The notes below the pieces were generated by a model, which saw nothing but the letters and a program-made list of their open reading frames with translations, did not search any database and was not told where the DNA came from. From IMG/VR virus record IMGVR_UViG_3300025392_000640, positions 37,214-101,213 of that record: a stretch of 64,000 nucleotides of DNA; one strand, written 5' to 3'. How positions within the stretch are numbered: position 1 is the stretch's first letter; each line of letters begins with the position of its first letter. This stretch comes from a virus. Lineage: Duplodnaviria; Heunggongvirae; Uroviricota; Caudoviricetes. Positions 2,490-46,484 of the stretch are shown in pieces. Made by a program: the position numbers and the translations under genes.

Positions 2490-2535
2490 TCTAAGGAGCA
2501 TTAAAAAGGAGTGCGGACCGAACCCACACTCCCAT
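2490..2535 (-). terminator. Rho-independent terminator downstream of 2557..2799
   Basis: Minus-strand hairpin GGAGTGTGGGTTCGGTCCGCACTCC followed by TTTTT. Confidence 0.6.
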
Positions 2536-3869: not shown

Positions 3870-5477
3870 TTATTTATATATTTCATCTAAGCTTTCCAAA
3901 ATATTATCTTTATACTTATCCAAAAAATCATCACAATTATCATAATGCCATTCATTCAATTGATATCTTAATATTCTATCATGCAATGCACCATTATCCG
4001 AAAAATCCATCGGCATTAAATTTTTATAGTAATTCAATCTATAAATGTCATCCTCTGTCTCTGCGTATATTTTTGGTATTATGTGTTGTAATGCCCACTT
4101 ACCCTTACCATGCCCATGATTATCCCAAGTCATCCAAGGTTCAAACATACTTTCAATATAATCCCTAAATTCATTCCATTCAATCCCTAATATATCCTTT
4201 GTTCTTTTTGTTTTTGGATTTCCCTTCAATGCCGAATGTACATACGTTTTAACCAATGCGTGCAATTTAACCATTGGATTTGTATGATAATTTAATTTAC
4301 TTTGTATTCTACCTGCTTCGTAATATATATCCCTTCTATATGTTAAAGCACATTCAATACAAATGTATGCACTTCTAAAATCATTCTCATGTTGCTCTGT
4401 CTTACACTTTCTACACCATTTGTGATTTTCTTTTGTTGGATATGGGCATATATTAGCAGACATGTATTCAAAGTAACTTATAGTATCTAATTTTATTTTT
4501 AGCTCTTCTGTCAAATATATACTACCCGGTCCATTTCGTAACCAATTATACTCATATGCCACCGGAGTTCCCGTCCAATTATTATAATTTTTGTAATCAG
4601 TACTTTCAACAAAGTCCGAAACCAATTTTACACGTTTCAACCATAAAGATTCTTTATCTAATTGTTTTTGCTTTTCTATTTTTTTTAATTCTAATTCCTT
4701 TTGTATCTTTTTTTCCGTTTCTAATTTAATATACCTACATTGTGTACACTCTTGCTCTTTTAATAAAGATGCCACCTTTCTTTTTAGTATATGTCCATTC
4801 GTACACTCATACTCTATTTTTAAACAATTTTCAGTATTATAATATTTTCTAATTATTTTTTTAATGTATGGTAGTTTTTCAACATCAATTAATTTTTGAG
4901 TATCCGTTTCAGCTTTTTTGTTTTTAATTGTATTAATATGTTCTTCTAATGATAACATCCAGTTTGGTCTACCACAATATTTTAAAATCCAATGTCTTGT
5001 TTTTTTGTATTGTTTTTTATTCAAATCCAATTTGTATAACTCATCTAAGGATGAAACTTCGTTTATAAGAACTTTATAATATTCAATCATTTCATTATGA
5101 ATTGACTCTTTTATCTTATTTTTATTTGAAATATATTCAGCTCTTTTTACAGCTCTTCTTTTTAATAGGTTTGTATGAGCACATTTATCTGAACAAAATT
5201 GTCTACCTTTTGAATTTGGATTTCCACACTCTTTACAATTTGGATTTTTTCTAGCCTTTGATGATTTTTTTGCTTTATTTAATTCTAATTGTTTTTCATG
5301 TTTACATTTATCACAAAATTTTCTAGTGCCAACAAACGCAGGGTCAGTTATTATTCTACCATTTTCCCATATCAAAGTTGCTGTTAGTTTTTCTTTACAT
5401 CTTTGACATTCTACATAAGCCCTATCCCCTACCTTTAATACGGGATGTGTTATTACTTTGTAACTTTGATTTGTCAT
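3870..5477 (-). CDS. Cysteine-rich multi-zinc-ribbon protein, function unknown (possible nucleic-acid-binding or nuclease-associated)
   Basis: 535-aa ORF with many CxxC pairs (CQRCKEK, CDKCKHE, CKECGNP, CSDKCAH, CTQCRY, CRKCKTE, CIECAL); lies directly upstream of the paralog array. Confidence 0.6.
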   Translation of the reverse strand: MTNQSYKVITHPVLKVGDRAYVECQRCKEKLTATLIWENGRIITDPAFVGTRKFCDKCKHEKQLELNKAKKSSKARKNPNCKECGNPNSKGRQFCSDKCAHTNLLKRRAVKRAEYISNKNKIKESIHNEMIEYYKVLINEVSSLDELYKLDLNKKQYKKTRHWILKYCGRPNWMLSLEEHINTIKNKKAETDTQKLIDVEKLPYIKKIIRKYYNTENCLKIEYECTNGHILKRKVASLLKEQECTQCRYIKLETEKKIQKELELKKIEKQKQLDKESLWLKRVKLVSDFVESTDYKNYNNWTGTPVAYEYNWLRNGPGSIYLTEELKIKLDTISYFEYMSANICPYPTKENHKWCRKCKTEQHENDFRSAYICIECALTYRRDIYYEAGRIQSKLNYHTNPMVKLHALVKTYVHSALKGNPKTKRTKDILGIEWNEFRDYIESMFEPWMTWDNHGHGKGKWALQHIIPKIYAETEDDIYRLNYYKNLMPMDFSDNGALHDRILRYQLNEWHYDNCDDFLDKYKDNILESLDEIYK

Positions 5478-5770
5478 ACAATTACATATTTTTCTTTTAT
5501 ATAAATTAATTGGTCTCTCATTTTATCCAATGTATCAATTGTTTTAATCCTTACAAATTCTGTCATTGCTCCTTTTTTATAACCTATAAACATTCGATAT
5601 AAAGGATACCTATTATGTATATTGTTTACTACCTGCCTATCTAATTCTATATTACTATTGTCCGATAACCAAATTGAATAAGCATCACCTATTTCAGCTA
5701 TTCCAATAACCGTCAGGCCATCCTTTAATACCAATCCTTCCAGCTTCTTATAGTTTTGTATTGTTAGCAT
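5474..5770 (-). CDS. MLTI(K/E)NI-family paralog 1 (hypothetical)
   Basis: N-terminus MLTIQNYKKLEG; ~100 aa; member of tandem array. Confidence 0.6.
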   Translation of the reverse strand: MLTIQNYKKLEGLVLKDGLTVIGIAEIGDAYSIWLSDNSNIELDRQVVNNIHNRYPLYRMFIGYKKGAMTEFVRIKTIDTLDKMRDQLIYIKEKYVIV

Positions 5771-6036
5771 TTCATTAAATATTTTATTCTATCCCTTACA
5801 ATATGTGGCGTTTTCAAATCTTTTAGGGTTAGGTAGTCCGATTTGTTATTTAATTTTAATCGATATTTCCCTTTAGCAGTTCCTATCCTATTCAATTGGG
5901 CTATTATTACATTTGAATTACTTATATTCTTTAAGTGAAAAAAATATACATCAGGTGTACCAATTACAAATTCGACACGATACCGCCTACCAACATATTT
6001 TTTATTAATCTTTTGTATGTTCTCTATTATGAGCAT
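5764..6036 (-). CDS. MLTI(K/E)NI-family paralog 2
   Basis: MLIIENIQKINKK. Confidence 0.55.
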   Translation of the reverse strand: MLIIENIQKINKKYVGRRYRVEFVIGTPDVYFFHLKNISNSNVIIAQLNRIGTAKGKYRLKLNNKSDYLTLKDLKTPHIVRDRIKYLMKC

Positions 6037-6341
6037 ATCATTCCCGTTTGTATATGTAATTCTAATATAAAATTCTTTAATGTCAAATTTGATAACTTTA
6101 CATAAACATCTTGTTGCAGGTTTTCTGATGTCATTACATATCCCCTTCTATTCAATAAAGCCCTATGTAATTTATATACAATAACATCCTTTATACTTGC
6201 CACATTGTTTTCTAATAAAGGAAACACTCCAAATGTATAATGTAAACCTTCATTCTTAGCTATACCAATTATGAATTTTTGTCCACTACTTAATTTGAAC
6301 TCTTGTCCTTCTATATTTGTAAAGTTTTTTATTGTTAGCAT
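6027..6341 (-). CDS. MLTI(K/E)NI-family paralog 3
   Basis: MLTIKNFTNIEGQ. Confidence 0.6.
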   Translation of the reverse strand: MLTIKNFTNIEGQEFKLSSGQKFIIGIAKNEGLHYTFGVFPLLENNVASIKDVIVYKLHRALLNRRGYVMTSENLQQDVYVKLSNLTLKNFILELHIQTGMICS

Positions 6342-6343
6342 AA

Positions 6344-6664
6344 TTATTCAATTGACATTACTCTTTCAATACAATATATAAAAGTGTTCTTATCTTTTAT
6401 TTGCTCATAACTTAATAACATACATTTTCTATCAGTATCCTCATCCCACAATATATACCCATCATAGCCAGATGCAAACCTAGTTTTAAATCTATTCAAT
6501 ACTAATCGAATATCGCTATGTGTTTTATTTACATGTCTTATATGTAAATGATATTGCTCGTTACCCTGTTGAGTCCACATCCATATATTATATACATAAT
6601 AGTTTCCTGTTGGTATTGTTAATCTTTGATTGATTAATGTATGTGTATTTTCTATTGTTAGCAT
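6344..6664 (-). CDS. MLTI(K/E)NI-family paralog 4
   Basis: Track ORF 6344..6676 begins MHYNMLTIEN; start adjusted to the conserved MLTIENTHTLINQ. Confidence 0.55.
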   Translation of the reverse strand: MLTIENTHTLINQRLTIPTGNYYVYNIWMWTQQGNEQYHLHIRHVNKTHSDIRLVLNRFKTRFASGYDGYILWDEDTDRKCMLLSYEQIKDKNTFIYCIERVMSIE

Positions 6665-6665
6665 A

Positions 6666-6977
6666 TTATAGTGCATTTAAGTACATTTGTAATATTTCCA
6701 TAAACTCAATTGGATTTTTCATTGCGGTTTTATATAAAAATGTAGATTTGCTTCCAAATTTTCTTAATTGATATAGTGTAGTTTCAGGTGCTATGTTATC
6801 GAATGGTGCTTTCTTTCTAGTAAGTAAAACTATAATTGGAGCATGTACTGTCCCAATATCTTTAATTACTATTCTATATTCGTTTGGTGATGTCAAAACA
6901 TTCCCTATAACAAAAGTATATCCTTTTATTGTTATAGCTTTATGTATTAGTATTTCTATGTTTTGTATTGTTAGCAT
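6666..6977 (-). CDS. MLTI(K/E)NI-family paralog 5
   Basis: MLTIQNIEILIHK. Confidence 0.6.
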   Translation of the reverse strand: MLTIQNIEILIHKAITIKGYTFVIGNVLTSPNEYRIVIKDIGTVHAPIIVLLTRKKAPFDNIAPETTLYQLRKFGSKSTFLYKTAMKNPIEFMEILQMYLNAL

Positions 6978-7146
6978 ATATTAGTTTTTCCAATCACCAC
7001 TCCTTAATAGGTTTGTTATATAATCCATTGATTGTAGCGTTGTCAAAAATACAGGAGCTGGATATTCCTTGCCTTTGTATATTACTTTTGTTGGCTGCCA
7101 TACTAAACTACCATTATCTAATTCCAATTTATTCATATCATTTGTT

Positions 7147-7449
7147 TTATCCACATACTGCCTCTAACCAATATAAAGTACTACCAATACTCCTTAACTC
7201 TTCTGTGGATACATACCTTGCAGTTTGTGATGTATGTAATTTATAGTAATCTTTGTTTTCTACATTTCCACTATTTTTTGGGGTATCAATAATTCTGTCC
7301 AAATATATTGTTCTAAACATACTTCCGTGTTTTAAATAAAATTGATATTGCTTCCCACCATAATCAGTAGTTCCTATAATTTTCCAATCAAGTCTTTTTA
7401 TAGTTACTACTTGCCCTTCTATATTTTTTATGTTTTCTATTGTTAGCAT
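7147..7449 (-). CDS. MLTI(K/E)NI-family paralog 6
   Basis: MLTIENIKNIEGQ. Confidence 0.6.
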   Translation of the reverse strand: MLTIENIKNIEGQVVTIKRLDWKIIGTTDYGGKQYQFYLKHGSMFRTIYLDRIIDTPKNSGNVENKDYYKLHTSQTARYVSTEELRSIGSTLYWLEAVCG

Positions 7450-7769
7450 CCTTCAATTACTCTTAACATTGGTCCAATTAATGATTTCGGTTCTTTTAAA
7501 TGATTTATGTCTATTAATCTACTCTTATTAGTTATTATGTTTTTCAATTCGTATATGTGCATATCATCCCATTTAGTAGCATGTGTTCTACTCAAATTGA
7601 TTACAGCTTCCCTCAATAATCCGCCGGCAGGATGTGCTTCAATACATCTAAATACAAATTGATACAAATCACTAGCCGTTTGTATATTACTTAATTCCCA
7701 TTTTTCACCAGCTACTCTTAATGATTTTGCTAATGGACTTATATTATTTATGTTTTCTATTGTTAGCAT
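7443..7769 (-). CDS. MLTI(K/E)NI-family paralog 7
   Basis: MLTIENINNISPL. Confidence 0.6.
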   Translation of the reverse strand: MLTIENINNISPLAKSLRVAGEKWELSNIQTASDLYQFVFRCIEAHPAGGLLREAVINLSRTHATKWDDMHIYELKNIITNKSRLIDINHLKEPKSLIGPMLRVIEGC

Positions 7770-7770
7770 A

Positions 7771-8094
7771 TTATTTTTTTATATAACAATTCTCTAATTG
7801 TCCACCTAACATACCAGGAAACATTTTCAAATCTAATAAACCTTTTGTTAGTGTTACATAATTAGTATTTTGGTCATTATACATTCGCCATTCATTTTCT
7901 GTATCAATTGTGTATCTTAATAACTTAAACAATACCCACTTCGGATGCTTTAAAAAAGGTATAAGGCCATAATTATATTTTACTCTAATAATATAATCAT
8001 TCCTTCGTTCCTCTATACCCATAACTACCCATCTTGCTTTCGTAGTGTGTAAGGGCGTTCCGTCTAGCTTTTGTATGTTCTCTATTTTTAACAT
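7771..8094 (-). CDS. MLTI(K/E)NI-family paralog 8
   Basis: MLKIENIQKLDGT. Confidence 0.6.
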   Translation of the reverse strand: MLKIENIQKLDGTPLHTTKARWVVMGIEERRNDYIIRVKYNYGLIPFLKHPKWVLFKLLRYTIDTENEWRMYNDQNTNYVTLTKGLLDLKMFPGMLGGQLENCYIKK

Positions 8095-8408
8095 GGCATT
8101 ATACTTCTTAATGTGTTCAACATTTTATCCCTAGTCTTAATAGACTTTTTATCCAATGTAGCCCTAATCGATGCTGAACCCCTATCACTCATAGAAGTAG
8201 TAGCATACCCATCTTTGTCTATTCTACTCAATTCTATAATTACCCACTCATCATCAAATATACCAAGCTTTCTATTTACTAATATTTGATATGCTGTTTC
8301 AAATTCTTTTACATTTTGTACTGTCCAATGTTTTCGTTCCACTACATTGTTTACATCTGTTACGAATCCCTTACCAATCAATTTATCTATATTCTTTATT
8401 GTTAGCAT
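8088..8408 (-). CDS. MLTI(K/E)NI-family paralog 9
   Basis: MLTIKNIDKLIGKG. Confidence 0.6.
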   Translation of the reverse strand: MLTIKNIDKLIGKGFVTDVNNVVERKHWTVQNVKEFETAYQILVNRKLGIFDDEWVIIELSRIDKDGYATTSMSDRGSASIRATLDKKSIKTRDKMLNTLRSIMPC

Positions 8409-8409
8409 A

Positions 8410-8703
8410 CTATTCGTTTAACATTTTATCAATTAACTCTCCTATCATATAAGGCTCTATTTGATGTAAACTTACCCATCTATTTATTTTACTTTGCTCA
8501 AAATCTTTATACAATCTATAAACAGGTTCGTTTCTACCACTTACATATGTACTCTCTCTATTCAAATAAAATGTTGTAACCATACTGCCTATAAGAACTG
8601 AAAATGCATATAAATATTCTAATTCAGTTACCGCACCTATACGCCAATTGTTAATAGATGAACCTACATTTACTATCGTATCTATATTTTTTATTGTTAG
8701 CAT
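8410..8703 (-). CDS. MLTI(K/E)NI-family paralog 10
   Basis: MLTIKNIDTIVNVG. Confidence 0.6.
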   Translation of the reverse strand: MLTIKNIDTIVNVGSSINNWRIGAVTELEYLYAFSVLIGSMVTTFYLNRESTYVSGRNEPVYRLYKDFEQSKINRWVSLHQIEPYMIGELIDKMLNE

Positions 8704-8704
8704 A

Positions 8705-9028
8705 TTATGTATTTAGCTCTTGTTCGATTACTTCTAATAAGTTTGTAATATCTTTTAACCTTTCAAAATCAAAATATCGGTAGTTATTAGTATTAGTATG
8801 TTTAAAATAATATACATTGTTTCTTCCACTTATACCTTGTAATATTCTACCCAATAAAAATATATTAGTTACATTAACAGCTGAATGTATGGATGGCCTA
8901 CTTACTACAAACATATATTCTGGTATCAGTGCATTATTATTCGTTTCCATAACATTATCAATTTTCCAATTATATACATTGCTATAATTTAATTGTGTTA
9001 TTTTTTCTATGTTCTTTATTGTCAACAT
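8705..9028 (-). CDS. MLTI(K/E)NI-family paralog 11
   Basis: MLTIKNIEKITQL. Confidence 0.6.
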   Translation of the reverse strand: MLTIKNIEKITQLNYSNVYNWKIDNVMETNNNALIPEYMFVVSRPSIHSAVNVTNIFLLGRILQGISGRNNVYYFKHTNTNNYRYFDFERLKDITNLLEVIEQELNT

Positions 9029-9369
9029 TATAATATAAATTCTATTGCGTGGATTAACTTACCCATCGTATCCATTAAACTAATATCCAAATACAAAGTA
9101 CGACCGTGTGTATATGGACTCTGATAGATTTCATATTTACCGTCCATCTGCTCCCTATTCAAAACTATCATTGTAGTTGCGGATACTTTTTTATGTTGAT
9201 TAAATGTCATTGGGTCATAAAGGGTATTAAACTTAGCCAAATTTATTTCATATGCAGCAAATCCTCTTTCATTATTTTCATTAACATCAACGACTTCCCA
9301 GCTACGCTCCCAATGTGGCTGTGTAAATTGATGTCCAATTAATTTATCTATATTCTTTATTGTTAGCAT
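9028..9369 (-). CDS. MLTI(K/E)NI-family paralog 12
   Basis: MLTIKNIDKLIGHQ. Confidence 0.6.
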   Translation of the reverse strand: MLTIKNIDKLIGHQFTQPHWERSWEVVDVNENNERGFAAYEINLAKFNTLYDPMTFNQHKKVSATTMIVLNREQMDGKYEIYQSPYTHGRTLYLDISLMDTMGKLIHAIEFIL

Positions 9370-9372
9370 AAT

Positions 9373-9834
9373 TTATATTTCGTGCATACATTCTATAATT
9401 TCCTCAATACTACTTAATCTATCTTTGCTTATCCACAATGTATTTCCGTTATATTCCATTATATATCTTTTATCAGATGTCTGCCTTCTATGTAAAAGTA
9501 TTGTTTCGATTTGTGACATTTCTTTATTACCTAATGTAAACTCATAATGGGTTTCCCACTCTTTAACTCCAATTACTTTTAACCACTCACTATAATCATG
9601 TCCTTTAATCTTATCAATGTTTTCAATTGTTAAGAACATTTGTTTTCTTTTTTCGTTCTCTTGCTTTATATACTCATCTAATACTCTTTGTGCTTGCTCT
9701 AATGCTATATCTTTTATTTGTTGAGCATCTAACATAGCTTGTGTATATACAGATTGAGGCGTTCCAGCAATATTTTGTATCTTTTGTAACATTTGTTGTG
9801 TTGTCATCGTTGGTGGTGTTGGTATATGTGCCAT
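9373..9834 (-). CDS. MLTI(K/E)NI-family paralog 13 with ~55-aa Gln-rich N-terminal extension
   Basis: Internal FLTIENIDKIKGHDY after an N-terminal Q/A-rich coiled segment. Confidence 0.55.
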   Translation of the reverse strand: MAHIPTPPTMTTQQMLQKIQNIAGTPQSVYTQAMLDAQQIKDIALEQAQRVLDEYIKQENEKRKQMFLTIENIDKIKGHDYSEWLKVIGVKEWETHYEFTLGNKEMSQIETILLHRRQTSDKRYIMEYNGNTLWISKDRLSSIEEIIECMHEI

Positions 9835-9835
9835 A

Positions 9836-10156
9836 TTATAAAAAATATTCTAAATAGTTTGTAAAGACATTAATACTTTGAATGGATGGTTTTACTAAGT
9901 ACATATGTTCAGTACCACATTCTAATTTATATTGAAAGCCCGTTTGATTAGTTTCATAATGTTTGCTCAATACTATTTTTCTATCCCATCCATACTCTGC
10001 TTCCTCTACAAAAATTACATAGTGTCTCAAATGTTCTATGATTGTTGTTACCTTCCATTTAGTTGCTCCTTCAGGTCCAGCACCATACAATTCAGTACCT
10101 ACTAATTTTCTATAATTTATTATTTTTAATCCCATATTAATATTTTGGTAATACAT
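9836..10156 (-). CDS. MLTI(K/E)NI-family paralog 14 (divergent)
   Basis: MGLKIINYRKLVGTE near the N-terminus; the real start may be the internal Met. Confidence 0.5.
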   Translation of the reverse strand: MYYQNINMGLKIINYRKLVGTELYGAGPEGATKWKVTTIIEHLRHYVIFVEEAEYGWDRKIVLSKHYETNQTGFQYKLECGTEHMYLVKPSIQSINVFTNYLEYFL

Positions 10157-10463
10157 TTTCTAATTGTTTAATAAATTTATCAATTGTATCTATATCTTTA
10201 TTATATCCCTGCCATACCGCTTCGGGTGTTGATAATTGATAAGTATGCTGATTCAATCTTAATGTAACTTCCTTTTCAATTGTACGAGTCATATTATAGT
10301 ACTTCTGATTAGGTGAACTCTTAACAGGAGCTTCAGTTCTCATTTTATAAGTGTATGAGATATCATTCCCATACATAGTTAGATTTAAGTCTGTTACATA
10401 CCAAAGGTCACCATTGGACGGTATCCATTGATTCAATAACTTATCAGGGTTTTTTATTATCAT
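10137..10463 (-). CDS. MLTI(K/E)NI-family paralog 15 (divergent)
   Basis: MIIKNPDKLLNQW. Confidence 0.5.
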   Translation of the reverse strand: MIIKNPDKLLNQWIPSNGDLWYVTDLNLTMYGNDISYTYKMRTEAPVKSSPNQKYYNMTRTIEKEVTLRLNQHTYQLSTPEAVWQGYNKDIDTIDKFIKQLENVLPKY

Positions 10464-10629: not shown

Positions 10630-10871
10630 TATTTATTCTTTTTATGTATATCCCACAAATACCAAATGTATGCTAACATAATAACACATACATAAAATAT
10701 AGTTTGCTTAGTGTACATTAATTTTCAATTACAATATATTTTAATCCGTTTACTTCCTCAACTCTACTAACTTTTTTACTTATTTCATCCGCACGATTCA
10801 TATCTTTATGTGCTATCCATAACATAGTTTGAACCATATATACAATTGGTGCCATAGGTTAATTATTTATA

Positions 10872-10903
10872 CAAAGATACGAAATTTATCCGATTTTACC
10901 AAA
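10872..10903 (-). promoter_or_regulatory. Bacteroidetes-type promoter
   Basis: caaagatacgaaatttatccgattttaccaaat. Confidence 0.55.
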
Positions 10904-10905: not shown

Positions 10906-10940
10906 AAAAAGGAGCGTTTAACTGCTCCTTTTATTCGATT
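10906..10940. terminator. Bidirectional rho-independent terminator (downstream of 11006..11503)
   Basis: aaaaaaggagcgtttaactgctccttttatt: GC stem flanked by an A-run and a T-run. Confidence 0.6.
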
Positions 10941-11005: not shown

Positions 11006-11503
11006 TTATCCTTCTTCAATGTCATCAAAGTTTTGATTGTGATGTAGAATGTGATTTAACATATTAACTGCTATATGCAATCCATGTGATTCACCTTTCT
11101 TAAAGTTACGATATTCAGCCACCTTAGTAGCATCTACGAATCCTGCTTTAAGAGCATCTGCTAATCCGTGCTCAGCTTCGTAATCACACTTCTCAGCCAT
11201 TTCAACTAAGTGTACGATTCCTAATTCAATTTCCTTTTCAGTAATTGTGTTTTGTTGTTCTACAATTGGAGTAGTTAGAACGATTGGTTCATTTACTATC
11301 TTTGTAGGTTTCTTTGCTGCAGAAACTTTGATAGCTTGTTTTGTTTTTGCCATTTCTTTTCTTTTTTTAATTTGATGCAGAATAATATCTAATGCAATTA
11401 TAAATATTGCAATTCCTGCTACGATGTATATAATAGTTTGTTGCATACTAATCCATTTTTTCAAATAGGTCATCGAATAAACCTTCCTCAACTCTTTTAC
11501 CAA
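11006..11503 (-). CDS. membrane-anchored hypothetical protein
   Basis: 165-aa ORF with N-terminal TM helix IIYIVAGIAIFIIALDIIL. Confidence 0.5.
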   Translation of the reverse strand: MVKELRKVYSMTYLKKWISMQQTIIYIVAGIAIFIIALDIILHQIKKRKEMAKTKQAIKVSAAKKPTKIVNEPIVLTTPIVEQQNTITEKEIELGIVHLVEMAEKCDYEAEHGLADALKAGFVDATKVAEYRNFKKGESHGLHIAVNMLNHILHHNQNFDDIEEG

Positions 11504-11699
11504 ATGCTAATCCCAATAATTCAGTTTGAAGTTCTTGAAAATGCTTTTGTCTTTCAACTTCAGCTTTGAATTTATCCGGCGTTAATTCACTCAACTCAAC
11601 AATATCAAAATGCTGTGTTGGTATTGTAAACACTTGGTATCCACTATTTGTTTTACGAATAGTAATTCCATCCTCAATCCATTCTTTAAGATTTTCCAT
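11448..11699 (-). CDS. hypothetical protein
   Basis: 83-aa ORF. Confidence 0.4.
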   Translation of the reverse strand: MENLKEWIEDGITIRKTNSGYQVFTIPTQHFDIVELSELTPDKFKAEVERQKHFQELQTELLGLAFGKRVEEGLFDDLFEKMD

Positions 11700-13173
11700 A
11701 CTTTTGTTTTATTCTTTTTAAGAAATCAATTTCATCAATAAGTTTATCGTGTTTTTCATTTAATACATCTTCCATATTAGAATGCAAATCCAAAATAATA
11801 GAATTATCTTTCATAGAATCATAGGATTTTATAAATAAATTTTCATCTAAAATACCGTTACCATATCCAACGAGTCTCCAACCTGATGTAGAAAATACAC
11901 TTTCTTTTTTTCTATTAAAATTTAAACTTTCTTTTAAACCACTAATAGTACTAATTAGTTTTTTACTCATATATTTTTCATCACGATATCTATTCCAAAA
12001 TTCTGTATCGGTTCTTTTTGTAATGTAGTGATATTGTAAAAAATCAACAATATCATCATTCAGTTCTCCCAATGCCCAATTGTATTGACCCATATTATAA
12101 GGGTCTTTAAAATCAATATCAAATTTAGTTAATACTAATAATCCAATAATTACCATACCAATAGCAGTTGCTTCCAATGGTTCAACAAATCCGGTACTCA
12201 ATCCAACACCAATACAATTATTAATCCAATTGCTTTTATATCTACCAGGTTCAAAAGATATGGTTCGATTGCATTCAATTTCATGTCCTAATAAATTCTC
12301 AACTTCTTTTTTAGCTTCATCCGAATTTATATAATTGTTATCAAACACATAACCACATCCCCATCTACTTTGTAAAGGTATTTGCCATAACCAACCATAT
12401 TTCATAGCTATAGCCTTTGTGTATGTTGCAATATCAGTTTTGGATTGAGGTAATTGAAATGGTAATGCAGAATTAACTGTTAATCTATCTTTATATGATA
12501 TCCATTCTGTATTATATAATTTACCAATAATTAATCTTTTGAATCCGCTACAATCAAATACGAAATGGATATTTTCTACTTTTGTTTCATTTTCTAGCTC
12601 TATTGTTTTAATATCACCAAATCTATTTTGTACAAAATTAGTAATCACCCCTTCAATTCTTTTTACACCTCTACTTTCTGCAATTTTTTTAAAATAACTT
12701 GCTACTAAGTGGGCATCAAAATGAAATGAAAAATTGACCATTTGAGTATTATTTAATGAAATAGCAGATTTATTGTTATATGCCATATATTTAGATGCAA
12801 TCTTATCATTTAAATCATATCCATTTTTCATCAAAAACCCCCAATATTCACTATCACATATAGGTACATTATCTGGATTAGTTGAAAAGAAATCGTGAAT
12901 ATATTTTTTACCGTTACCATCCCAATTTTCAAAACTAACTCCTAATTTATGTGTTGCATTTGTTTCAACCATAAATTCATTATAATCTATTTTAACAAAT
13001 TGTAAAAAGTCCATCAATCTAGGAATACTACCTTCACCAGCACCCAATATACCAATATCTTCACTTTCAATTAAAGTTATATCAGCGCTACCATCATTAT
13101 ATAAATGCTGTGCCCATAATGCTGACATCCATCCAGCTGTTCCACCACCTACTATAACAATTTGTTTTTTCAT
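11686..13173 (-). CDS. Flavin-dependent (tryptophan-type) halogenase family protein
   Basis: N-terminal FAD site IVIVGGGTAGWMSA and the halogenase signature GWLWQIPL (WxWxIP). Confidence 0.8.
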   Translation of the reverse strand: MKKQIVIVGGGTAGWMSALWAQHLYNDGSADITLIESEDIGILGAGEGSIPRLMDFLQFVKIDYNEFMVETNATHKLGVSFENWDGNGKKYIHDFFSTNPDNVPICDSEYWGFLMKNGYDLNDKIASKYMAYNNKSAISLNNTQMVNFSFHFDAHLVASYFKKIAESRGVKRIEGVITNFVQNRFGDIKTIELENETKVENIHFVFDCSGFKRLIIGKLYNTEWISYKDRLTVNSALPFQLPQSKTDIATYTKAIAMKYGWLWQIPLQSRWGCGYVFDNNYINSDEAKKEVENLLGHEIECNRTISFEPGRYKSNWINNCIGVGLSTGFVEPLEATAIGMVIIGLLVLTKFDIDFKDPYNMGQYNWALGELNDDIVDFLQYHYITKRTDTEFWNRYRDEKYMSKKLISTISGLKESLNFNRKKESVFSTSGWRLVGYGNGILDENLFIKSYDSMKDNSIILDLHSNMEDVLNEKHDKLIDEIDFLKRIKQKYGKS

Positions 13174-13607
13174 TAATCTATGATTGTAATTTCATTAATT
13201 GTATCCCCAGCTTTAATAGCATCTAATACATCAAACCCTTCAGTCAATTTACCGAAGCAAGTGTGATTACCATCTAAGTGCTGCGTACCAACTCTATTGT
13301 GGCAAATAAAGAATTGAGAACCACCAGTATTTCGGCCGGCATGTGCCATACTCAATACACCTCTATCGTGATATTGCTTTGGTGCCGATACCTCACATTG
13401 AATTGTATAACCCGGTCCACCCGTACCATTTTTATTAGGGCAGCCACCTTGCACCACAAAATTTGGTATAACTCTATGGAAATTTAATCCATTGTAAAAT
13501 CCCTCACCAATTAATTTTTTAAAGTTATTAACTGTGATTGGCGTTTCGTTATCGTATAGCTCTGCTATCATAACTCCTTTTGCTGTATCTATCTTTACTT
13601 TACTCAT
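13173..13607 (-). CDS. Cyclophilin-type peptidyl-prolyl cis-trans isomerase
   Basis: FHRVIPNFVVQGGCPNKNGTGGPGYTIQCE and MAHAGRNTGGSQFFI cyclophilin motifs. Confidence 0.9.
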   Translation of the reverse strand: MSKVKIDTAKGVMIAELYDNETPITVNNFKKLIGEGFYNGLNFHRVIPNFVVQGGCPNKNGTGGPGYTIQCEVSAPKQYHDRGVLSMAHAGRNTGGSQFFICHNRVGTQHLDGNHTCFGKLTEGFDVLDAIKAGDTINEITIID

Positions 13608-14305
13608 TATACTTTTGGTTTTTTAGTGTACTTTCTTTTTGGTTTTGGTGCTGGGATTTCTCTAACTCCTGCTGCCCAATCCTTTTTAGGTATCATATGT
13701 AATCCAGTACAAAAGCCTGTTTCACTTCTACCACATCCACACTTCTTTTGTTCAGGCTCATTATACAATCCTTTATTAGTAATATCTTTTACAATAGCTG
13801 ATGTATTAATTCCCGTAACAATTGCATTCATTTCATTCAATTCGTTTTCCAAAGTAGTTTTAATTGATTGAGGTAAGTTAGCAGTATTTTCTTCCAACTT
13901 AGAAGCGATATCTTGCTTAGCTATTTCAGCCATCTTTTGTTTACCTTCCTTTGATACTCTACTTAGTGGAATTGATGCCAATGGGTCATTATCGTTTGGA
14001 AAATTCATATCAATCGTACCTATCTTTGTAGTTTTTACATTGATTGATTGGTCAGGTGCCGGAAACTCACTATTCTCAAATTCTTTTTTAAGTTCCTCTA
14101 CAATTTTATCACCTTGAATATTATTCTTAAGTAAAATTTGACGTAACTCATCATTATCAGTTATAGGTTTAATACCTGCTAACTTTTGAAATTCGTCTTT
14201 GTCAAATCCATACATTTGTGTTGGTTTTTGTTTTTTGTTTTTTTGTTTATCGTATATTAGCTTACCAATAAATGCTAATATAGCAATGAATAATAACCAT
14301 TCCAT
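13607..14305 (-). CDS. membrane-anchored hypothetical protein
   Basis: 232 aa with N-terminal TM; Cys cluster CGCGRSETGFC near the C-terminus. Confidence 0.5.
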   Translation of the reverse strand: MEWLLFIAILAFIGKLIYDKQKNKKQKPTQMYGFDKDEFQKLAGIKPITDNDELRQILLKNNIQGDKIVEELKKEFENSEFPAPDQSINVKTTKIGTIDMNFPNDNDPLASIPLSRVSKEGKQKMAEIAKQDIASKLEENTANLPQSIKTTLENELNEMNAIVTGINTSAIVKDITNKGLYNEPEQKKCGCGRSETGFCTGLHMIPKKDWAAGVREIPAPKPKRKYTKKPKV

Positions 14306-14453
14306 ATATATTTGTTTTAGTGTTTAAATAATGCTTTGAATCCTTCGAATATAATACGGAATCCTAATGATAGAACAGCAATTATCATTGATGTAACTAT
14401 TAAGTAAGCCGTAACTTCTACTATTTTATTCCAATTTATTTTTTTCATATAAA

Positions 14454-14780
14454 TTATTTAATAATCATTAATAATTCCTGCTCTCTAAATAAATAATAAT
14501 CATCATCGCCCAACTTTACTTTTTGTGCAGTACCAACTTGAGGCATCATAACCTTATCACCAACTTTTACTTCCATTGGAATTTTTACTCCATCGTTTGT
14601 GTATATACCATTTCCAACTGAAACTACAATACCAATTTTCGTATCCGTTGCCGTAGCTGTTTCAGGAATAATAATACCACCTGCTGTTTTTGCCTGAGCT
14701 ACATCTTCGGATTTAATCAATACTCTATCTGCTAATGGCTTTGCTAATTGAAATCCTTCTGTTTGTTTTACTTTACTCAT
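14454..14780 (-). CDS. groES: Co-chaperonin GroES (Cpn10) homolog
   Basis: LKPLADRVLIK...GGIIIPETA...GDKVMMPQVGTAQKV...DDDYYLF; ~100 aa. Confidence 0.8.
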   Translation of the reverse strand: MSKVKQTEGFQLAKPLADRVLIKSEDVAQAKTAGGIIIPETATATDTKIGIVVSVGNGIYTNDGVKIPMEVKVGDKVMMPQVGTAQKVKLGDDDYYLFREQELLMIIK

Positions 14781-16978: not shown

Positions 16979-17173
16979 TTATTCAATATTATTTTCTAAG
17001 TAGTTTATTAGTTCTAGCTCCAATCCCTGATTTTCGATTACTTCCATTCCGTTATCATCAAATATATCGTATTGAATATAACCACTAGCGAAGTCTTCGA
17101 GAATTGTTATGGTGTATCCCTTTCCTTTGTACTTTACTTCGTAAGTTTTTTCCGTTTGTAATAGTGTGACCAT
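16979..17173 (-). CDS. hypothetical protein
   Basis: 64 aa; overlaps the 3' end of the lysin gene out of frame. Confidence 0.3.
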   Translation of the reverse strand: MVTLLQTEKTYEVKYKGKGYTITILEDFASGYIQYDIFDDNGMEVIENQGLELELINYLENNIE

Positions 17174-17678
17174 TCTTTAATGATTTTTTATGTTTATGTG
17201 ATACCTCTTTCCAATCATTAGCTTCGATATGTATTCGTGCTAATATATCTTTTAATTGAGATGAATAACTCCTTCCAACTTCTGAATAAATTCTATCTAA
17301 GTAGTGGTAGTATTCCTCTCTACTATGTGTTGGGTTAATATCTTCTGTAACACTTTGTAATAAATAATAATCCACAATACTCATATGCCAATTAGGATAA
17401 TGTGCGTATCCATTAATAGAGCTATCCGAACAAGTTACTCTTGTGTGTGGATACTTCATACCAAATAGATTGTTATTCACTTTGAAGTTTTTGGATTTGA
17501 ACCATCCACTCTCTAATATAGCCTGTGCTACTACAATATCTTTGTGTTTAAAAGGCAGTGCCCAAACATCCATTTGAATATTATGTAAGGTAACACTATC
17601 TTCGGGTGCTATTGTTGGCTCTTGTGCTTTTGTATTGCACGAAGTAAATAACAATAATGCGATTAATAGTTTTTTCAT
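17085..17678 (-). CDS. Glucosaminidase-domain (FlgJ/mannosyl-glycoprotein endo-beta-N-acetylglucosaminidase-like) cell-wall hydrolase with lipoprotein signal peptide
   Basis: MKKLLIALLLFTSC lipobox; AQAILESGWFKS...NNLFGMKYP glucosaminidase signature. Confidence 0.7.
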   Translation of the reverse strand: MKKLLIALLLFTSCNTKAQEPTIAPEDSVTLHNIQMDVWALPFKHKDIVVAQAILESGWFKSKNFKVNNNLFGMKYPHTRVTCSDSSINGYAHYPNWHMSIVDYYLLQSVTEDINPTHSREEYYHYLDRIYSEVGRSYSSQLKDILARIHIEANDWKEVSHKHKKSLKNGHTITNGKNLRSKVQRKGIHHNNSRRLR

Positions 17679-17688
17679 TTGTTTTATT

Positions 17689-18036
17689 TTAGTTTATTTT
17701 CATTGGATATTTATTCCACTCAACCTCAACCTCATCTTTAATTCCGTTTAAAGGTCTTTGTTGTTTACATTTTTTTAATAGTTCATAGGCTTCATCAAAG
17801 TTATCAAAGTATGGTACATTTTTACTATCGTAACCATCCTCACAAGCAACTCCAGTCCAATATCTAAATCCCAATAGGTTTACTTTTTTCTGAACTATGT
17901 AACTTGAAGTCTTTAACTTACCAACATCATAATAACTTCTTTTTATTATACGATATGGTCTATCCAATTCGTTTGTTGTGTACTTAATTAATCTTTGTAT
18001 CCCTATTAATACAAATACGATTATTAATATTGTCAT
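17689..18036 (-). CDS. membrane-anchored hypothetical protein
   Basis: 115 aa with N-terminal TM. Confidence 0.45.
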   Translation of the reverse strand: MTILIIVFVLIGIQRLIKYTTNELDRPYRIIKRSYYDVGKLKTSSYIVQKKVNLLGFRYWTGVACEDGYDSKNVPYFDNFDEAYELLKKCKQQRPLNGIKDEVEVEWNKYPMKIN

Positions 18037-18046
18037 ATTTTATATT

Positions 18047-19093
18047 TTAGTTATCAATATCTTTTTTAAATGGTTTGCTCCACTTTGGTTTAATCATTTT
18101 CCAAATAGTATCTTCGTATGATTTACCATCCCACATTGAGAACAATATAGAACGATATTCATTATCTTTGATTGCTAATGCAAATTCTTTTTTATCACCA
18201 TTTGATTCACCTTTATAATATTCAAAATCAATAGAGCTTCTGAATTTAATATTTTCAAAATGTGCTTTCAATTCCAATACAGTCATTCTAACCCAATTAT
18301 CAAACTCATCCGGTACTCTATCTAAGAACTCATTTAAGTTTCCATCGGTTCTCAATAATTCCCAAATATCAGTAGTTGAAAAGTTAGTTAATATTCTATG
18401 TAAACGAACATACTCATCACCTTTGATTTTCATTCTCATTCCTCTTTTGAAACGAACAACAAATCCTTCGGCATCATTTGAAATTATTCCTTTTAAAGTT
18501 TTGAAATCAGTTACTCCATCGTATTTTTTAACTACTTCAAATCCTTCACTTTCCATATTTTCAATACTACCTTCAATTCCAATTTCATTATTGTAAACTG
18601 CTAATACAACTAATTTCTCAGCTCCACCATAATCAACAACAATTCTATTTTCAGGGTATATGATTTCAAATAAGTAAGTGTAACCTGGTATCATTCCATA
18701 CTTAGTATTTTCTTTACTCAATAACTCTTTACCTTTGATAGCTTGTTCGGATGTGAAAGAACCACGTGTTGCTATATGCCACTCATCATTATAGAAAAAG
18801 CATATACCCAAGCTACCATCCATTTTTTCAAATACTTCAAATGACTGATTTGGTATTGATTCGGGTGACAATTCCTCATAGTTAAAGAATTTTGGAAATG
18901 GTTTAGCAATTAAATTACCTTCGTTATCTAAAACTAATCCCCTACATTCTAAAGTAATCGGGTCCCACAATTTTTCGTACTGAACACCTCTGCTATAATT
19001 GTATATAGATAAAGGTAAAGTTGGGTGGTCTTGTTTAATCACCCAACCTTTCTCTACATACTGCTTAAGTAATTCAAATTTATCGTATTTCAC
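18047..19093 (-). CDS. RNA ligase (Rnl1/T4 RnlA-like nucleotidyltransferase)
   Basis: Motif I KMDGSL, motif IV EGFVVRF, motif V MKIKG; 348 aa. Confidence 0.75.
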   Translation of the reverse strand: MKYDKFELLKQYVEKGWVIKQDHPTLPLSIYNYSRGVQYEKLWDPITLECRGLVLDNEGNLIAKPFPKFFNYEELSPESIPNQSFEVFEKMDGSLGICFFYNDEWHIATRGSFTSEQAIKGKELLSKENTKYGMIPGYTYLFEIIYPENRIVVDYGGAEKLVVLAVYNNEIGIEGSIENMESEGFEVVKKYDGVTDFKTLKGIISNDAEGFVVRFKRGMRMKIKGDEYVRLHRILTNFSTTDIWELLRTDGNLNEFLDRVPDEFDNWVRMTVLELKAHFENIKFRSSIDFEYYKGESNGDKKEFALAIKDNEYRSILFSMWDGKSYEDTIWKMIKPKWSKPFKKDIDN

Positions 19094-21421: not shown

Positions 21422-21699
21422 TCGGTAAATGAATTAATTGTTTTCATAGTTCCTTTGGCATATATTCCTTTATGTAGTGTATCAATCCAATTAGTACCTT
21501 TACCATTTCCAGCTCTTTTTATTTCATAGGTTTCATTTTCCCAATCTATAATAAATGCTAAAACATAATTGGTATCATCGGGCTGACGGAATACCCACAA
21601 TTCAGGACTTATACCATCCGTTGAAAACTTATATTCATAACCCGATGGGGTTTTGAATCTTTTATCATCTATCTTTCTAAAGTTTTCTGGCTTATTCAT
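21373..21699 (-). CDS. hypothetical protein
   Basis: 108-aa ORF. Confidence 0.45.
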   Translation of the reverse strand: MNKPENFRKIDDKRFKTPSGYEYKFSTDGISPELWVFRQPDDTNYVLAFIIDWENETYEIKRAGNGKGTNWIDTLHKGIYAKGTMKTINSFTEWVKTRIGNYETEYDI

Positions 21700-22855
21700 A
21701 CGAACTGCGGTCTATGTTTATAACAAATGGGAAACGAGGAATACCATCCGGCGTTAAATTAAAATACTTAATCGTTGCTTGCTTACCTATTAGTTTCTTT
21801 TTACTTTTAAGCATCTCAGCCGTTTCTTCCCATGTCCCTTTTACATTTGATTTGAAAGGTTTACCATCTGCTGTTTCAAATACCATATACCCAGCAGTTC
21901 CAGTTCTATTACCCTCACCCTCACAAATATCTTTAATGGTATATTCCTCATCAATGAATGATTTATGTTTCAATAGGGATTTACTTCTCTTATTCTCATA
22001 CTTAGCATCTAATCTTAGTATCTGTCCTTCGTAACCTTCATTCACATACTCACCATATAATTCCATCACCTCATCTTCGTTCTCACAAATTTGAGTTGGA
22101 ACTAATACACAATGCTTTTCAAATGATTCCAACGATTCATCAAACAATTCATCCAATTCAAAACCTCTATGATTAAATGTTTTGTTTGAGCTTGGTAAAT
22201 CATAAATCCAATACTGAATATTCTTTTGTGATTCTAATAAGTCATCTTCGGTTGGTTTAGTTTTCTTCACTAAGGATACAATACTATTGAAATCATTAGC
22301 GAACTTATCAGCATATAACTCACCATCCAATATCAAATCAGGATATGATTCAAACACATCATTCAAACTACGTCTAATATGTGGTGCTGAAATAATTGGT
22401 TTACCATTTCTACTAAACATACCGTCCTTAGTTACGATACAACGAATACCATCTAATTTAGGTTGTGAAAATATTGGGTATTCAATTTTATCTTTATAGT
22501 CTTCCCACTTTGCTGCTAACATTGGTTCAAAGTATTGTTTCTCATCAATGTTATGAATACTCTCAAAGTAGCCACTCTCTAACTTTTTAGTTCTCTTAGC
22601 GATTGCTTCTTTAAGAGCCTGTTCGTTATCAGTAGTACCATTTGCTTTACCACTATTCTTACCGTATACTACAGTCCATGCATTTGTAGTAATCTGGCCA
22701 CCAACTTGTCCACTATGAGTTCGGTATCTATTATCCGATACTTCGATTGTCCACTCTTGGGTTGCCCCTGTCTTTGTTTTTTTGTAAATTGTTTCTAACT
22801 TCATATCTTTATTTTTTAACATTTTTCTAATAATTCTAAACATTCGTTCATCCAT
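21692..22855 (-). CDS. ATP-dependent DNA ligase
   Basis: Motif I KLDGIRC, motif III ILDGELY, motif IV EGQILR, motif V LLKHK. Confidence 0.8.
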   Translation of the reverse strand: MDERMFRIIRKMLKNKDMKLETIYKKTKTGATQEWTIEVSDNRYRTHSGQVGGQITTNAWTVVYGKNSGKANGTTDNEQALKEAIAKRTKKLESGYFESIHNIDEKQYFEPMLAAKWEDYKDKIEYPIFSQPKLDGIRCIVTKDGMFSRNGKPIISAPHIRRSLNDVFESYPDLILDGELYADKFANDFNSIVSLVKKTKPTEDDLLESQKNIQYWIYDLPSSNKTFNHRGFELDELFDESLESFEKHCVLVPTQICENEDEVMELYGEYVNEGYEGQILRLDAKYENKRSKSLLKHKSFIDEEYTIKDICEGEGNRTGTAGYMVFETADGKPFKSNVKGTWEETAEMLKSKKKLIGKQATIKYFNLTPDGIPRFPFVINIDRSSYE

Positions 22856-23124
22856 AATGCTGTGCTTGAAGCGCTAGTCAAATTGGGATAAGAAACAGTA
22901 ACACTGGTAAGTTGTCTCCAACCCATAACAAACATTTCATATCTACCATTTTTTTGTTCTCTAGTTAAGTAAACTTCAACTTTCTTACCTTTGTAATCAT
23001 CTTTGAATACAAATACATAATGATATCCAGATACTATCATATTGTTATGTTGTCTAAATCCAACTATTCTATTACCATTACACATCATTCCAATTATCAC
23101 ACCTATATTATCTATTTTTAACAT
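22816..23124 (-). CDS. hypothetical protein, distant member of MLTI(K/E)NI family
   Basis: N-terminus MLKIDNIGVIIG resembles the paralog-array N-terminus. Confidence 0.4.
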   Translation of the reverse strand: MLKIDNIGVIIGMMCNGNRIVGFRQHNNMIVSGYHYVFVFKDDYKGKKVEVYLTREQKNGRYEMFVMGWRQLTSVTVSYPNLTSASSTALWMNECLELLEKC

Positions 23125-23129
23125 ATTAA

Positions 23130-23480
23130 TTATTTTAATGCCTGATTAACTAAGGTTACTACATAGGTTTTAAAAAATTCAATATTCTTAAAGTGAACTG
23201 AACTCACGTACTTATCCATAAACACAGATGATTGATGACCTCTTTTATATACAGCTGCTATGTTATGCTGGTTCTTATGGTCAGCGAATATAGCTATTTG
23301 GTAAGTATTTTTGAAATAATTGCTATACATATCCAACGAATGTATTTCAAAATAATATAACAATTCAACATCACCATTTGTTTTAATTATATTAGCTTTC
23401 TCAATTGTATATATCCTACCATCCGAAGGATATATTGTTTCACCATATACTTTATCAAAATTTTGTATTTCTTTTATCAT
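23130..23480 (-). CDS. hypothetical protein
   Basis: 116-aa ORF. Confidence 0.45.
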   Translation of the reverse strand: MIKEIQNFDKVYGETIYPSDGRIYTIEKANIIKTNGDVELLYYFEIHSLDMYSNYFKNTYQIAIFADHKNQHNIAAVYKRGHQSSVFMDKYVSSVHFKNIEFFKTYVVTLVNQALK

Positions 23481-34804: not shown

Positions 34805-35029
34805 CTATTCATTTACAATTTCTGCTTCAGGTATTTCTATTACTAAATAGTGTGTATCTTCAGGTCCTCTTAATAACTTCTCACAATGATAAAAGTCACA
34901 TAAGTCCTGCGCTGATACTTTATTTGAGAATAGGGCTTGAACTACTGAACTATCAGCTTTGAACTTTCGTTTCACTATCCAAACCGAACCATTAGCGTTA
35001 ATAACTTCTATTTGCATACTTTTTTCCAA
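34805..35029 (-). CDS. hypothetical protein
   Basis: 74-aa ORF. Confidence 0.4.
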   Translation of the reverse strand: MEKSMQIEVINANGSVWIVKRKFKADSSVVQALFSNKVSAQDLCDFYHCEKLLRGPEDTHYLVIEIPEAEIVNE

Positions 35030-35397
35030 TTTTGTTCCTCTACTTCATAAGCTTCTATTTCGTAGGGATGTGTTTTATATGTGTGTCCCATATCATAATA
35101 TCTCTGCATCCAAGCGGGCGATTGTAAATAGTGAGAGTATTCATGCACTATTGTTCGGGCTAAATCTTCTTTACCTTTAATATTTTTAGTATAAATAATA
35201 ATTTCGTTTTCTGCAAAATCATACTCACCTCTCCACAGGTTATCATAGCCTGTGGATTCGGGTGAATACTCTATTGATAGGTAAGGGGTGTGCTTCTGAT
35301 ACTTACTCTCTCCTAATAACTCTATAGTCTTCTCTAAAAATTGATATGCCTGTTTCTCTATTCTATCTCTAATCATTTTTTTATTTTTTTCTTTCAT
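35008..35397 (-). CDS. ImmA/IrrE-like (HExxH...ExEA) metallopeptidase-domain protein
   Basis: IVHEYSHYLQ and PYEIEAYEVEE. Confidence 0.55.
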   Translation of the reverse strand: MKEKNKKMIRDRIEKQAYQFLEKTIELLGESKYQKHTPYLSIEYSPESTGYDNLWRGEYDFAENEIIIYTKNIKGKEDLARTIVHEYSHYLQSPAWMQRYYDMGHTYKTHPYEIEAYEVEEQNWKKVCK

Positions 35398-43602: not shown

Positions 43603-43675
43603 AAGAGACTCGAACTCTTACATCTTACGATACCGGCTTCTAAGACCGGTGTGGCTACCATTACACCATCGGGGC
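43595..43675 (-). tRNA. tRNA-Leu (anticodon UAG)
   Basis: Hand-folded: acceptor GCCCCGA/TTGGGGT, anticodon loop CTTAGAA, long variable arm, T-loop GTTCGAGTC. Confidence 0.7.
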
Positions 43676-43690
43676 TATTTAAAAGAACTA

Positions 43691-43770: not shown

Positions 43771-43844
43771 ATATTACTTTTCTATTTCTTAATCCCTGCC
43801 CACGAGACGAGTGGGTGTGTTTGCCGAAGTCATAACTGAGATGA

Positions 43845-46482: not shown

Positions 46483-46484
46483 AA

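Follow-up and report, generated by a model that had tools for sequence, protein, structure and literature searches.

A 64,000-nt stretch of DNA from a tailed phage (IMG/VR record IMGVR_UViG_3300025392_000640, positions 37,214 to 101,213; hereafter the window) carries fifteen consecutive minus-strand open reading frames (ORFs) of one family, which span positions 5474-10463 and encode domains of 88-113 amino acids (aa). The genes open with nearly the same codons. We find it rather likely that this conserved start, the start box, is a substrate for recombination and that the locus is an operon-like tandem cassette array. The array had been noticed in a preliminary description of the DNA and is confirmed here by the ORF listing and by a profile built from the 15 members, which rescores each of them at E values from 1e-13 to 2e-27. 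Neighbouring ORFs abut or overlap, as had been reported, with overlaps of up to about 20 nt. The word consecutive holds for the family members only, since a non-family 57-aa ORF (6981-7154) interrupts the run.

Start box and gene-precise indels

The 12-mer ATGCTAACAATA occurs in nine exact copies, each at a family start (5770, 6341, 6664, 6977, 7449, 7769, 8408, 8703 and 9369); dinucleotide shuffles yield 1.2 copies on average and five at most. Most of the sites listed earlier for the motif are exact; the one at 9028 reads ATGTTGACAATA, and the copies at 5770 and 6341 had been missed. In a sequence logo of 110 unique members, high information extends from +1 to +21 (ATGCTAACAATAnAAAAYATA). The initial proposal that the first ~20 nt are conserved together with the upstream junction is thus upheld for the coding block; the upstream segment is merely A/T-rich, with weak preferences for A at -12, -11, -5 and -3 and for T at -4 and -1.

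Codon choice within the box was tabulated for 82 members, leaving out the search seeds. CTA makes up 46 of 72 Leu codons at position 2 (64%, versus 8.4% genome-wide), ACA 56 of 58 Thr codons (42% genome-wide), ATA 72 of 77 Ile codons (38%) and AAC 54% of Asn codons (23%). Synonymous positions of the box are constrained against the genome's own codon usage. General initiation preferences do not explain the box, because C at +4, present in 80% of family genes, is absent from all 86 other genes of the window, where A or G is preferred at this position and AAA is the favoured second codon. Rich in A and C, the box is unstructured, like other initiation regions of the window (minimum free energy, MFE, -1.4 kcal/mol, compared with -3.3 in internal windows). 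A hairpin or attC-like structure at the junctions was considered and ruled out, the initiation regions being unstructured. Searched for without codon bias, ML-T-I-x-N-I-D-K turned up in two kinds of gene: array-type genes, with CTA/ACA/ATA/AAC, and a dispersed orthologue (MLTIKNIDKVINMTCYGR, counterpart of the gene at 22816-23124), with TTA or TTG and often ATT and AAT. Because the dispersed orthologue keeps the peptide and uses other codons, the nucleotide identity of the box belongs to the array-resident genes.

The array is flanked by orf83 (11448-11699) and orf120/orf107 (1361-2049). The same flanks bracket arrays in contigs L004 and L005/L020; in L054/L055, L063 and L065 the array lies at the corresponding place, downstream of Cpn10 and prolyl isomerase genes. 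Copy number at the locus is 15 in the window, 12 in both L054/L055 and L063, 10 in L004, 8 in L065 and 5 in L005. At a threshold of at least 40% identity, 216 members cluster into 71 orthogroups (OGs), whose order at the syntenic locus is scrambled: 18 14 3 20 26 6 4 1 9 11 16 5 7 24 35 in the window, 18 14 25 12 7 27 1 21 6 13 in L004 and ...3 43 19 36 28 5 15 37 30 12 1 4 32 in L018. One and the same orthogroup can have up to five downstream neighbours over six contigs (OG1). The 15 copies of the window, 15-33% identical in full-length alignment, fall in 15 different orthogroups; as no orthogroup holds two of them, the duplications must be old.

Near-identical contigs from different metagenomes differ by four indels, each of exactly one gene and each with its breakpoints inside the box. 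In the first, between L018 and L022, the flanks are identical; L018 reads ATGCTAACAATAAAAAAC/ATACAA, continuing through an OG1 gene to ATGCTAACAATAGAAAAT/CAATAT, and L022 reads ATGCTAACAATAAAAAAC/CAATAT, so that the L022 gene is an in-frame hybrid carrying the box of one gene and the body of the next. In the second, L008 has an additional gene between two genes that abut in L020, with ATGCT(T/A)ACAATAGAAAACATA at both borders. The third is a 310-nt gene of L054, absent from L056, that spans the interval from one TATGCTAACAATA to the next. The fourth, a 331-nt gene, is present in L060 and L061 and absent from L054. Here the L054 product starts ATGTTG/ACAATAGAAAAT and the same gene in L060 starts ATGCTA, which places the crossover between +6 and +12 of the box. 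With both ends of each indel falling within a 21-nt window of a unit of ~320 nt, the four events are not what chance would be expected to produce. Cassette exchange at the conserved start, one of several readings offered in the preliminary description, is supported by these indels and by the scrambled orthogroup order.

Array orthologues evolve with a median ratio of non-synonymous to synonymous change (dN/dS) of 0.40 and a maximum of 1.2 (rough pairwise values for 101 pairs), as against 0.04-0.19 for orf83 and orf120 on the flanks. When the window is compared with L004, the array orthogroups in common show dS values of ~0.4-0.5, while the flanks, above 1.1 in every case, are at 1.6 or saturated. 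This difference tentatively suggests that cassettes moved between lineages more recently than the backbones diverged. In two comparisons (L018:7600-7700 with L022, and L020 with L008 in OG13), genes otherwise 100% or ~95% identical are interrupted by stretches of 35-45 nt in which substitutions, most of them non-synonymous, are crowded together. These mosaics suggest allele exchange or focused diversification. A diversity-generating retroelement is not supported as their cause, the mismatches being, by eye, not obviously adenine-specific; no reverse transcriptase was found among the window ORFs run through family searches, which did not take in every ORF.

The protein family and its genomic setting

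Homology between members runs through the whole protein. The strongest conservation across ~250 members lies in the first 12 residues, MLTIxN(I)xK(L/I)xG; beyond these, W22, Y35, L50-x-R52, Y69 and an amphipathic C-terminal helix are held in common. AlphaFold2 (AF2) models of two members (7147-7449, pLDDT 87.8, pTM 0.79, alignment depth 16 sequences; 8410-8703, pLDDT 79.1, depth 66 sequences) display a single topology, in which a coil (residues 1-6) and a short helix (7-10) precede an antiparallel sheet of five to six strands, six in the first model, and a C-terminal helix. As modelled, the array members have one small alpha+beta fold of ~100 aa in common, the point on which a structure check had been proposed. 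The alternative envisaged at that stage, unrelated proteins sharing only a start context, is rejected by the whole-length homology and the matching predicted folds.

No described family could be assigned, in agreement with the first inspection. Foldseek searches of the models against PDB and BFVD gave nothing at E<=0.001, and Pfam, PHROGs, PADLOC and NCBIfam profiles nothing significant; for 16 members no PADLOC, PHROGs or Pfam profile, known defence and anti-defence families included, scored better than E 0.005, and the best match of the family profile among PDB sequences had an E value of 0.21. Type III secretion chaperone-like alpha+beta folds (CesT, SicP, SycH), of alpha-beta3-alpha-beta2-alpha topology, scored weakly, at 3-17% identity and with a different helix order; Foldseek reports nothing of this kind at E<0.1, and membership is not claimed. 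Two long repeat proteins, P0025 and P0031, were discarded as homologues, as they match profile positions ~23-60 only, six or seven times each; we treat this as motif-level similarity between repeated beta-hairpins. DNA mimics of uniform charge were ruled out by the isoelectric points of the 15 copies, which span 5.3 to 10.2.

An exhaustive HMMER search of 1.84 billion representatives of clusters formed at 50% identity yielded 315 at E<=0.001, almost all of ~100 aa and starting MLTI(K/E/Q)N. In 13 of ~148 representatives (~9%) the start motif is internal, sometimes lacking the Met. A word-indexed search found matches only to metagenome entries labelled 'hypothetical protein'. Contigs with arrays, from IMG/VR and from metagenomes, reach 274-300 kb, and 21 of 22 motif matches in IMG/VR lie inside family arrays. 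No match was obtained among 50,697 GenBank phages by megablast of the region and tblastn of one member, and a motif scan of 185,579 bacterial and archaeal genomes gave 17 matches, all due to chance, with no family member among them. As far as these searches reach, the family is phage-restricted.

All genes of the window, which is AT-rich (~30% GC), are on the minus strand, so that the array is transcribed from high to low coordinates. Member 1 (10137-10463, 108 aa) has a divergent start, MIIKNPDKLL, and a score of E 1.4e-13 with the family hidden Markov model (HMM); its orthologue is also the first gene in the arrays of L004, L054, L063 and L065. Member 2 (9836-10135, 99 aa, MGLKIINYRKLVG; E 2.9e-20) was assigned the ATG at 10135 from the family alignment, the longest ORF extending to 10156. 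Member 3 (9373-9834) has its domain, MFLTIENIDKIKG, at 9373-9639 (residues 72-158; E 6e-22), preceded by the Gln-rich N-terminal extension already reported, which measures 65 aa and is kept in four homologues (P0007, P0095, P0104 and P0135). This extension (9640-9834) contains MLQKIQNIAG, which resembles a degenerate start-box peptide, and draws a weak second match of the first HMM; an upstream paralogue that became fused may have left this remnant.

Exact start boxes are carried by member 4 (9028-9369, 113 aa), member 6 (8410-8703, 97 aa, the second protein modelled), member 7 (8088-8408, 106 aa, with identical protein on five other metagenome contigs), member 9 (7443-7769, 108 aa), member 10 (7147-7449, 100 aa, the first protein modelled), member 11 (6666-6977, 103 aa), member 12 (6344-6664, 106 aa from the ATG at 6664), member 13 (6027-6341, 104 aa) and member 15 (5474-5770, 98 aa), the last array gene. 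Member 5 (8705-9028, 107 aa) has the variant box mentioned above, member 8 (7771-8094, 107 aa; OG1) reads MLKIENIQKLDG, ATGTTAAAAATA, and member 14 (5764-6036, 90 aa) reads ATGCTCATAATA. The interrupting ORF at 6981-7154 starts with GTG and gives no match to the family HMMs. It travels with arrays, as those of L006 and L019 contain a 68%-identical copy.

The distant relative previously indicated at 22816-23124 (102 aa, MLKIDNIGVIIGMMC) is a family member by profile (E 5e-6 without being part of the model; 4.8e-15 with a broader one). It is the orthologue of a single-copy gene conserved in many related phages (L027-L036), and its second codon is TTA, not CTA. Two further members were found. One, divergent, at 23130-23480 (116 aa; broad HMM E 7e-4), forms a conserved pair with the former: 'MLVIKNPxD...' followed by 'MLTIKNIDKVINMTCYGR' recurs in L027-L036, the IMG/VR contigs with the pair numbering at least 10. 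The pair is directly upstream of an ATP-dependent DNA ligase gene, which it overlaps by 40 nt (21692-23480). The other is a 200-aa protein (54646-55248) with an internal family domain at residues ~57-160, VEISNWDKLVG (broad HMM E 4e-6).

Member 15 overlaps by 4 nt a gene for a 535-aa multi-zinc-ribbon protein (3870-5477), which is therefore downstream of the array in the direction of transcription and not upstream, as originally stated. The protein has several CxxC pairs and a weak treble-clef match (DUF2116); its residues 351-515 match phrog_1035, 'endonuclease VII' (E 2e-6), and QHIIP...N482...N486...N495 is invariant in 21 homologues. Motifs of the QHIIP...N...N...N type are typical of beta-beta-alpha-Me (HNH-type) nucleases. 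We tentatively describe the C-terminus as HNH/EndoVII-like, tentatively because Pfam, NCBIfam and PDB sequence searches gave no nuclease match. Both L063/L064, a contig of 300 kb, and L065-L068 have a homologue (56-74% identity) directly after the array. The gene is absent in L004, L005/L020, L008 and L017, and the L054 gene calls list no protein of that size downstream of the array. It follows the array in three of the eight related locus versions examined, a recurrent neighbour and not a constant one; a one-off insertion was dropped from consideration, given the homologues at the same position in other lineages. The orthologue of member 15 adjoins the zinc-ribbon gene in L065 and is one gene apart from it in L063. 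Presence and absence at a fixed site is the usual signature of mobile homing-type nucleases, which stimulate local exchange, and the protein is probably a mobile nuclease, as predicted from its motifs and distribution. A 59-aa ORF between two array genes of L055 (L055:5342-5521), which L054 lacks, matches residues 1-37 of the protein at 56% identity, and homologues of 462-463 aa in L063 and L065 are without this N-terminal segment, which thus behaves as a separable module or remnant.

Scans for expression signals place a terminator-like hairpin (10907-10932, minus strand) upstream of the array, where the transcription unit before it may end. The intergenic region at 10663-10879 (minus strand) is a candidate array promoter by pattern match, with two -7 boxes, at 10872-10879 and 10663-10670, of the Bacteroidetes consensus TAHHTTTG (PMC6847099). 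The next terminator-like hairpin on the coding strand (2507-2533, minus strand) follows the array and the zinc-ribbon gene; the scan found no minus-strand terminator-like site inside the array, where promoter-like matches are no more frequent than in shuffles. In the window, array stops fall between -20 and +7 nt relative to the next ATG, with no Shine-Dalgarno sequence present, from which we infer probable co-transcription of the genes and their translation through coupling or reinitiation. Start contexts of the 86 non-family genes also lack a Shine-Dalgarno sequence and have A at -12 to -10 in 71-80% of cases, a pattern described for Bacteroidetes (PMC6847099). This match to Bacteroidetes-type initiation signals gives a hint of a Bacteroidota host.

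The window belongs to a large phage genome, judging from its tRNA genes, halogenases, RNA ligase, Cpn10, isomerase and DNA ligase; an identical region is found on metagenome contigs of at least 101 kb. Two paralogous FAD-dependent tryptophan halogenases (11686-13173 and 39003-40514; 37% mutual identity, Pfam E 2e-113) have their nearest phage relatives, at ~32-34% identity, in cyanophages and Pelagibacter phage HTVC008M. Genes near the array (13173-14780 and 17085-19093) encode Cpn10/GroES, a peptidyl-prolyl isomerase, a glucosaminidase and a T4 Rnl1-type RNA ligase; on related contigs, Band_7, 2OG-Fe(II) oxygenase and Kyano_Gp96 domains are encoded as well. A small paralogous pair outside the family (1687-2049 and 35008-35397; 33% identity over 96 aa) includes, in its first copy, the conserved downstream flank of the array locus. 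Twenty-five tRNA genes covering most amino acids cluster at 43594-50270 on the minus strand; three have a CAU anticodon, one of which may be an AUA-reading tRNA-Ile. The cluster includes tRNA-Leu(UAG) (43594-43675, minus strand), which reads CUA, a codon otherwise rare and used at codon 2 of array genes; the two may be linked.

Explanations for the start box

In the reading we favour, boxes would recombine with each other through homology or microhomology, both inside one genome and across co-infecting relatives, and would thereby expand, contract and reshuffle the array while leaving every gene intact, as in a genomic accordion or cassette deck. The same exchanges would homogenise the boxes, which would account for CTA/ACA/ATA in arrays as opposed to TTA/ATT in dispersed genes. 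The putative zinc-ribbon/HNH-like nuclease downstream, which recurs at this place, may locally stimulate exchange. The proteins would be variable binding modules directed against changing host targets, in the service of anti-defence or of takeover of the host, and their constant N-terminal segment would contact a partner common to all. A role as variable binders of host factors is the most likely that we can propose, and an anti-defence arsenal is compatible with the raised dN/dS.

Several points weigh against this interpretation. The loci used for codon statistics came in part from a motif-seeded search, and the non-seed genes are from the same genomes; dN/dS was obtained by pairwise NG86 on short AT-rich genes; and the nuclease assignment, itself tentative, draws on one PHROG match and a motif. 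The comparison sequences are all metagenome assemblies, in which a mis-join at a repeat of 12-21 nt is unlikely though conceivable. The function ascribed to the proteins is pure inference. The box could also be kept for a reason at the RNA level (a translational operator, coupling or a processing site), recombination being a by-product, and the atypical C at +4 argues for some sequence-specific constraint.

That last thought can be carried further. It is possible, though on the whole rather unlikely, that the box is primarily an RNA element, either a (re)initiation signal specific to the family or an operator through which a phage endoribonuclease or RNA-binding regulator would control every cistron, with recombination at the box as a side effect. 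T4 RegA and RegB are models for such control of polycistronic mRNA. The fixation of synonymous sites across divergent phages would fit, as would the A/C-rich, unstructured box (its MFE contrasting with that of internal segments), stops a few nt from the next ATG without a Shine-Dalgarno sequence, a C at +4 that is seen in this family alone and a phage-encoded tRNA-Leu(UAG) for CUA. However, other genes of the phage combine A or G at +4 and a second codon AAA with initiation regions that are equally unstructured, so that ordinary initiation does not need the box. Furthermore, dispersed members keep the peptide and not the codons, which fits homogenisation within arrays, and no regulator or complementary RNA was found in the window. 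An RNA role and the recombination substrate we favour are not mutually exclusive.

Plain concerted evolution, to which we give a slightly lower, doubtful standing, would have peptide selection and gene conversion keep the 5' ends alike, the indels being ordinary unequal crossovers without an adaptive role. Hybrid boxes do show conversion and crossover at this place, and array genes have codons in common that dispersed members lack; when close orthologues are compared, codons 2-5 differ at the third position no less often than codons elsewhere, in a sample made up mostly of dispersed orthogroups. Against this, phages whose flanks are synonymously saturated still retain identical synonymous codons in their arrays, where drift and conversion alone should have fixed different variants in each lineage. 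This explanation differs from the recombination-substrate reading solely in whether the property is selected.

At the other extreme, the box might be a selected recombination site, with the downstream putative nuclease cutting at or near boxes or junctions and repair off other boxes, of the same genome or of co-infecting relatives, continually regenerating in the phage population different decks of ~100-aa anti-defence modules. We regard this as unlikely; if true, it would amount to a selected shuffling system, a functional analogue of integrons and antigenic-variation cassettes held within the first seven codons of each gene.

The weakest proposal, quite improbable in our estimate and, among the readings of the preliminary description, not supported and mildly disfavoured, is that of capsid-packaged internal or ejected proteins, in which MLTIxNIxKLxG would be a capsid-targeting sequence and the variable bodies injected anti-defence effectors: the T4-like flavour of the neighbourhood (Rnl1-type RNA ligase, Cpn10, Kyano_Gp96) and the lower modelling confidence of the N-terminal 10 residues compared with the core speak for it, yet homology runs throughout and not at the N-terminus alone, the array lies among auxiliary and early-type genes and not in a structural module, and the reading is made less likely because the motif can be internal (in ~9% of representatives and in the protein at 54646-55248) and because no cleavage-type site follows it, with no conserved Glu in residues 5-20, no (L/I)xE-type site and position 5 occupied by K (36%), E (29%) or Q.

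Comparison with described systems

The closest described process is the modular shuffling mediated by promoter-early stem-loop elements (PeSLs) in hyperplastic regions of T4-type phages (Arbiol et al. 2010, PMC2839356; PMC4122927). There too, short conserved repeats among small non-essential ORFs of a large myovirus act as recombination substrates, giving rise to insertions, deletions and replacements between relatives, and repeat recombination likewise accounts for the close-relative indels found here, four of them unit-precise with breakpoints in the box. However, PeSLs are intergenic cassettes of a sigma-70-like early promoter and a stem-loop terminator that flank unrelated ORFans, whereas in the array the repeat is the first 21 coding nt of homologous genes, unstructured and without a promoter or terminator for each gene.

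The closest protein logic is that of the T-even internal proteins IPI/II/III and Alt with their capsid-targeting sequence (PMC3012670), where a large phage likewise attaches one constant N-terminal peptide of ~10-12 residues to small proteins that differ greatly from each other. The examples known act against restriction. Internal proteins show no relationship outside the targeting sequence, which is cleaved off by the prohead protease; the array proteins, in contrast, have one common predicted fold, no cleavage motif after the peptide and a motif that can be internal.

Among large eukaryotic DNA viruses, poxvirus K3L provides a genomic accordion, and Bodo saltans virus reportedly has ankyrin arrays of tandem paralogues. 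The likeness lies in tandem amplification, contraction and diversification of a host-interaction gene through recombination between copies. The differences concern the bacterial host and the virus realm, the age of the copies (ancient, at the identities given above, and not recent amplifications) and the restriction of recombination to a short conserved 5' box.

Integrons resemble the array in having promoterless same-strand cassettes behind one promoter that are gained, lost and reordered as whole units, but they rely on a tyrosine-recombinase integrase and attC hairpins. Here no recombinase appeared in family searches of the neighbours tested or in the Pfam-annotated gene calls of the matching contig, and the junctions, unstructured and without inverted repeats, show no attC-like sites; the cassettes are all homologues of one family, and their neighbour is a putative HNH-type nuclease that is not always present.

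What is new is best filed as an undescribed family together with a 'start box' in coding sequence that acts as a shuffling point. The family is large, phage-only and without annotation, with at least 315 clusters, up to 15 copies per array and 18 in the 64-kb window. Its raised dN/dS, the polymorphism of cassettes in populations and the layout as an operon make it a strong candidate for an arsenal, diversified for counter-defence or host takeover, of large phages of freshwater type whose translation signals are Bacteroidota-like. The array would provide a natural example of accessory-gene turnover in large phages in which a conserved coding start doubles as the crossover point, whole genes being added, lost or reordered with reading frames unbroken, and it makes available for experiment a defined element of 21 nt and a small, defined fold.

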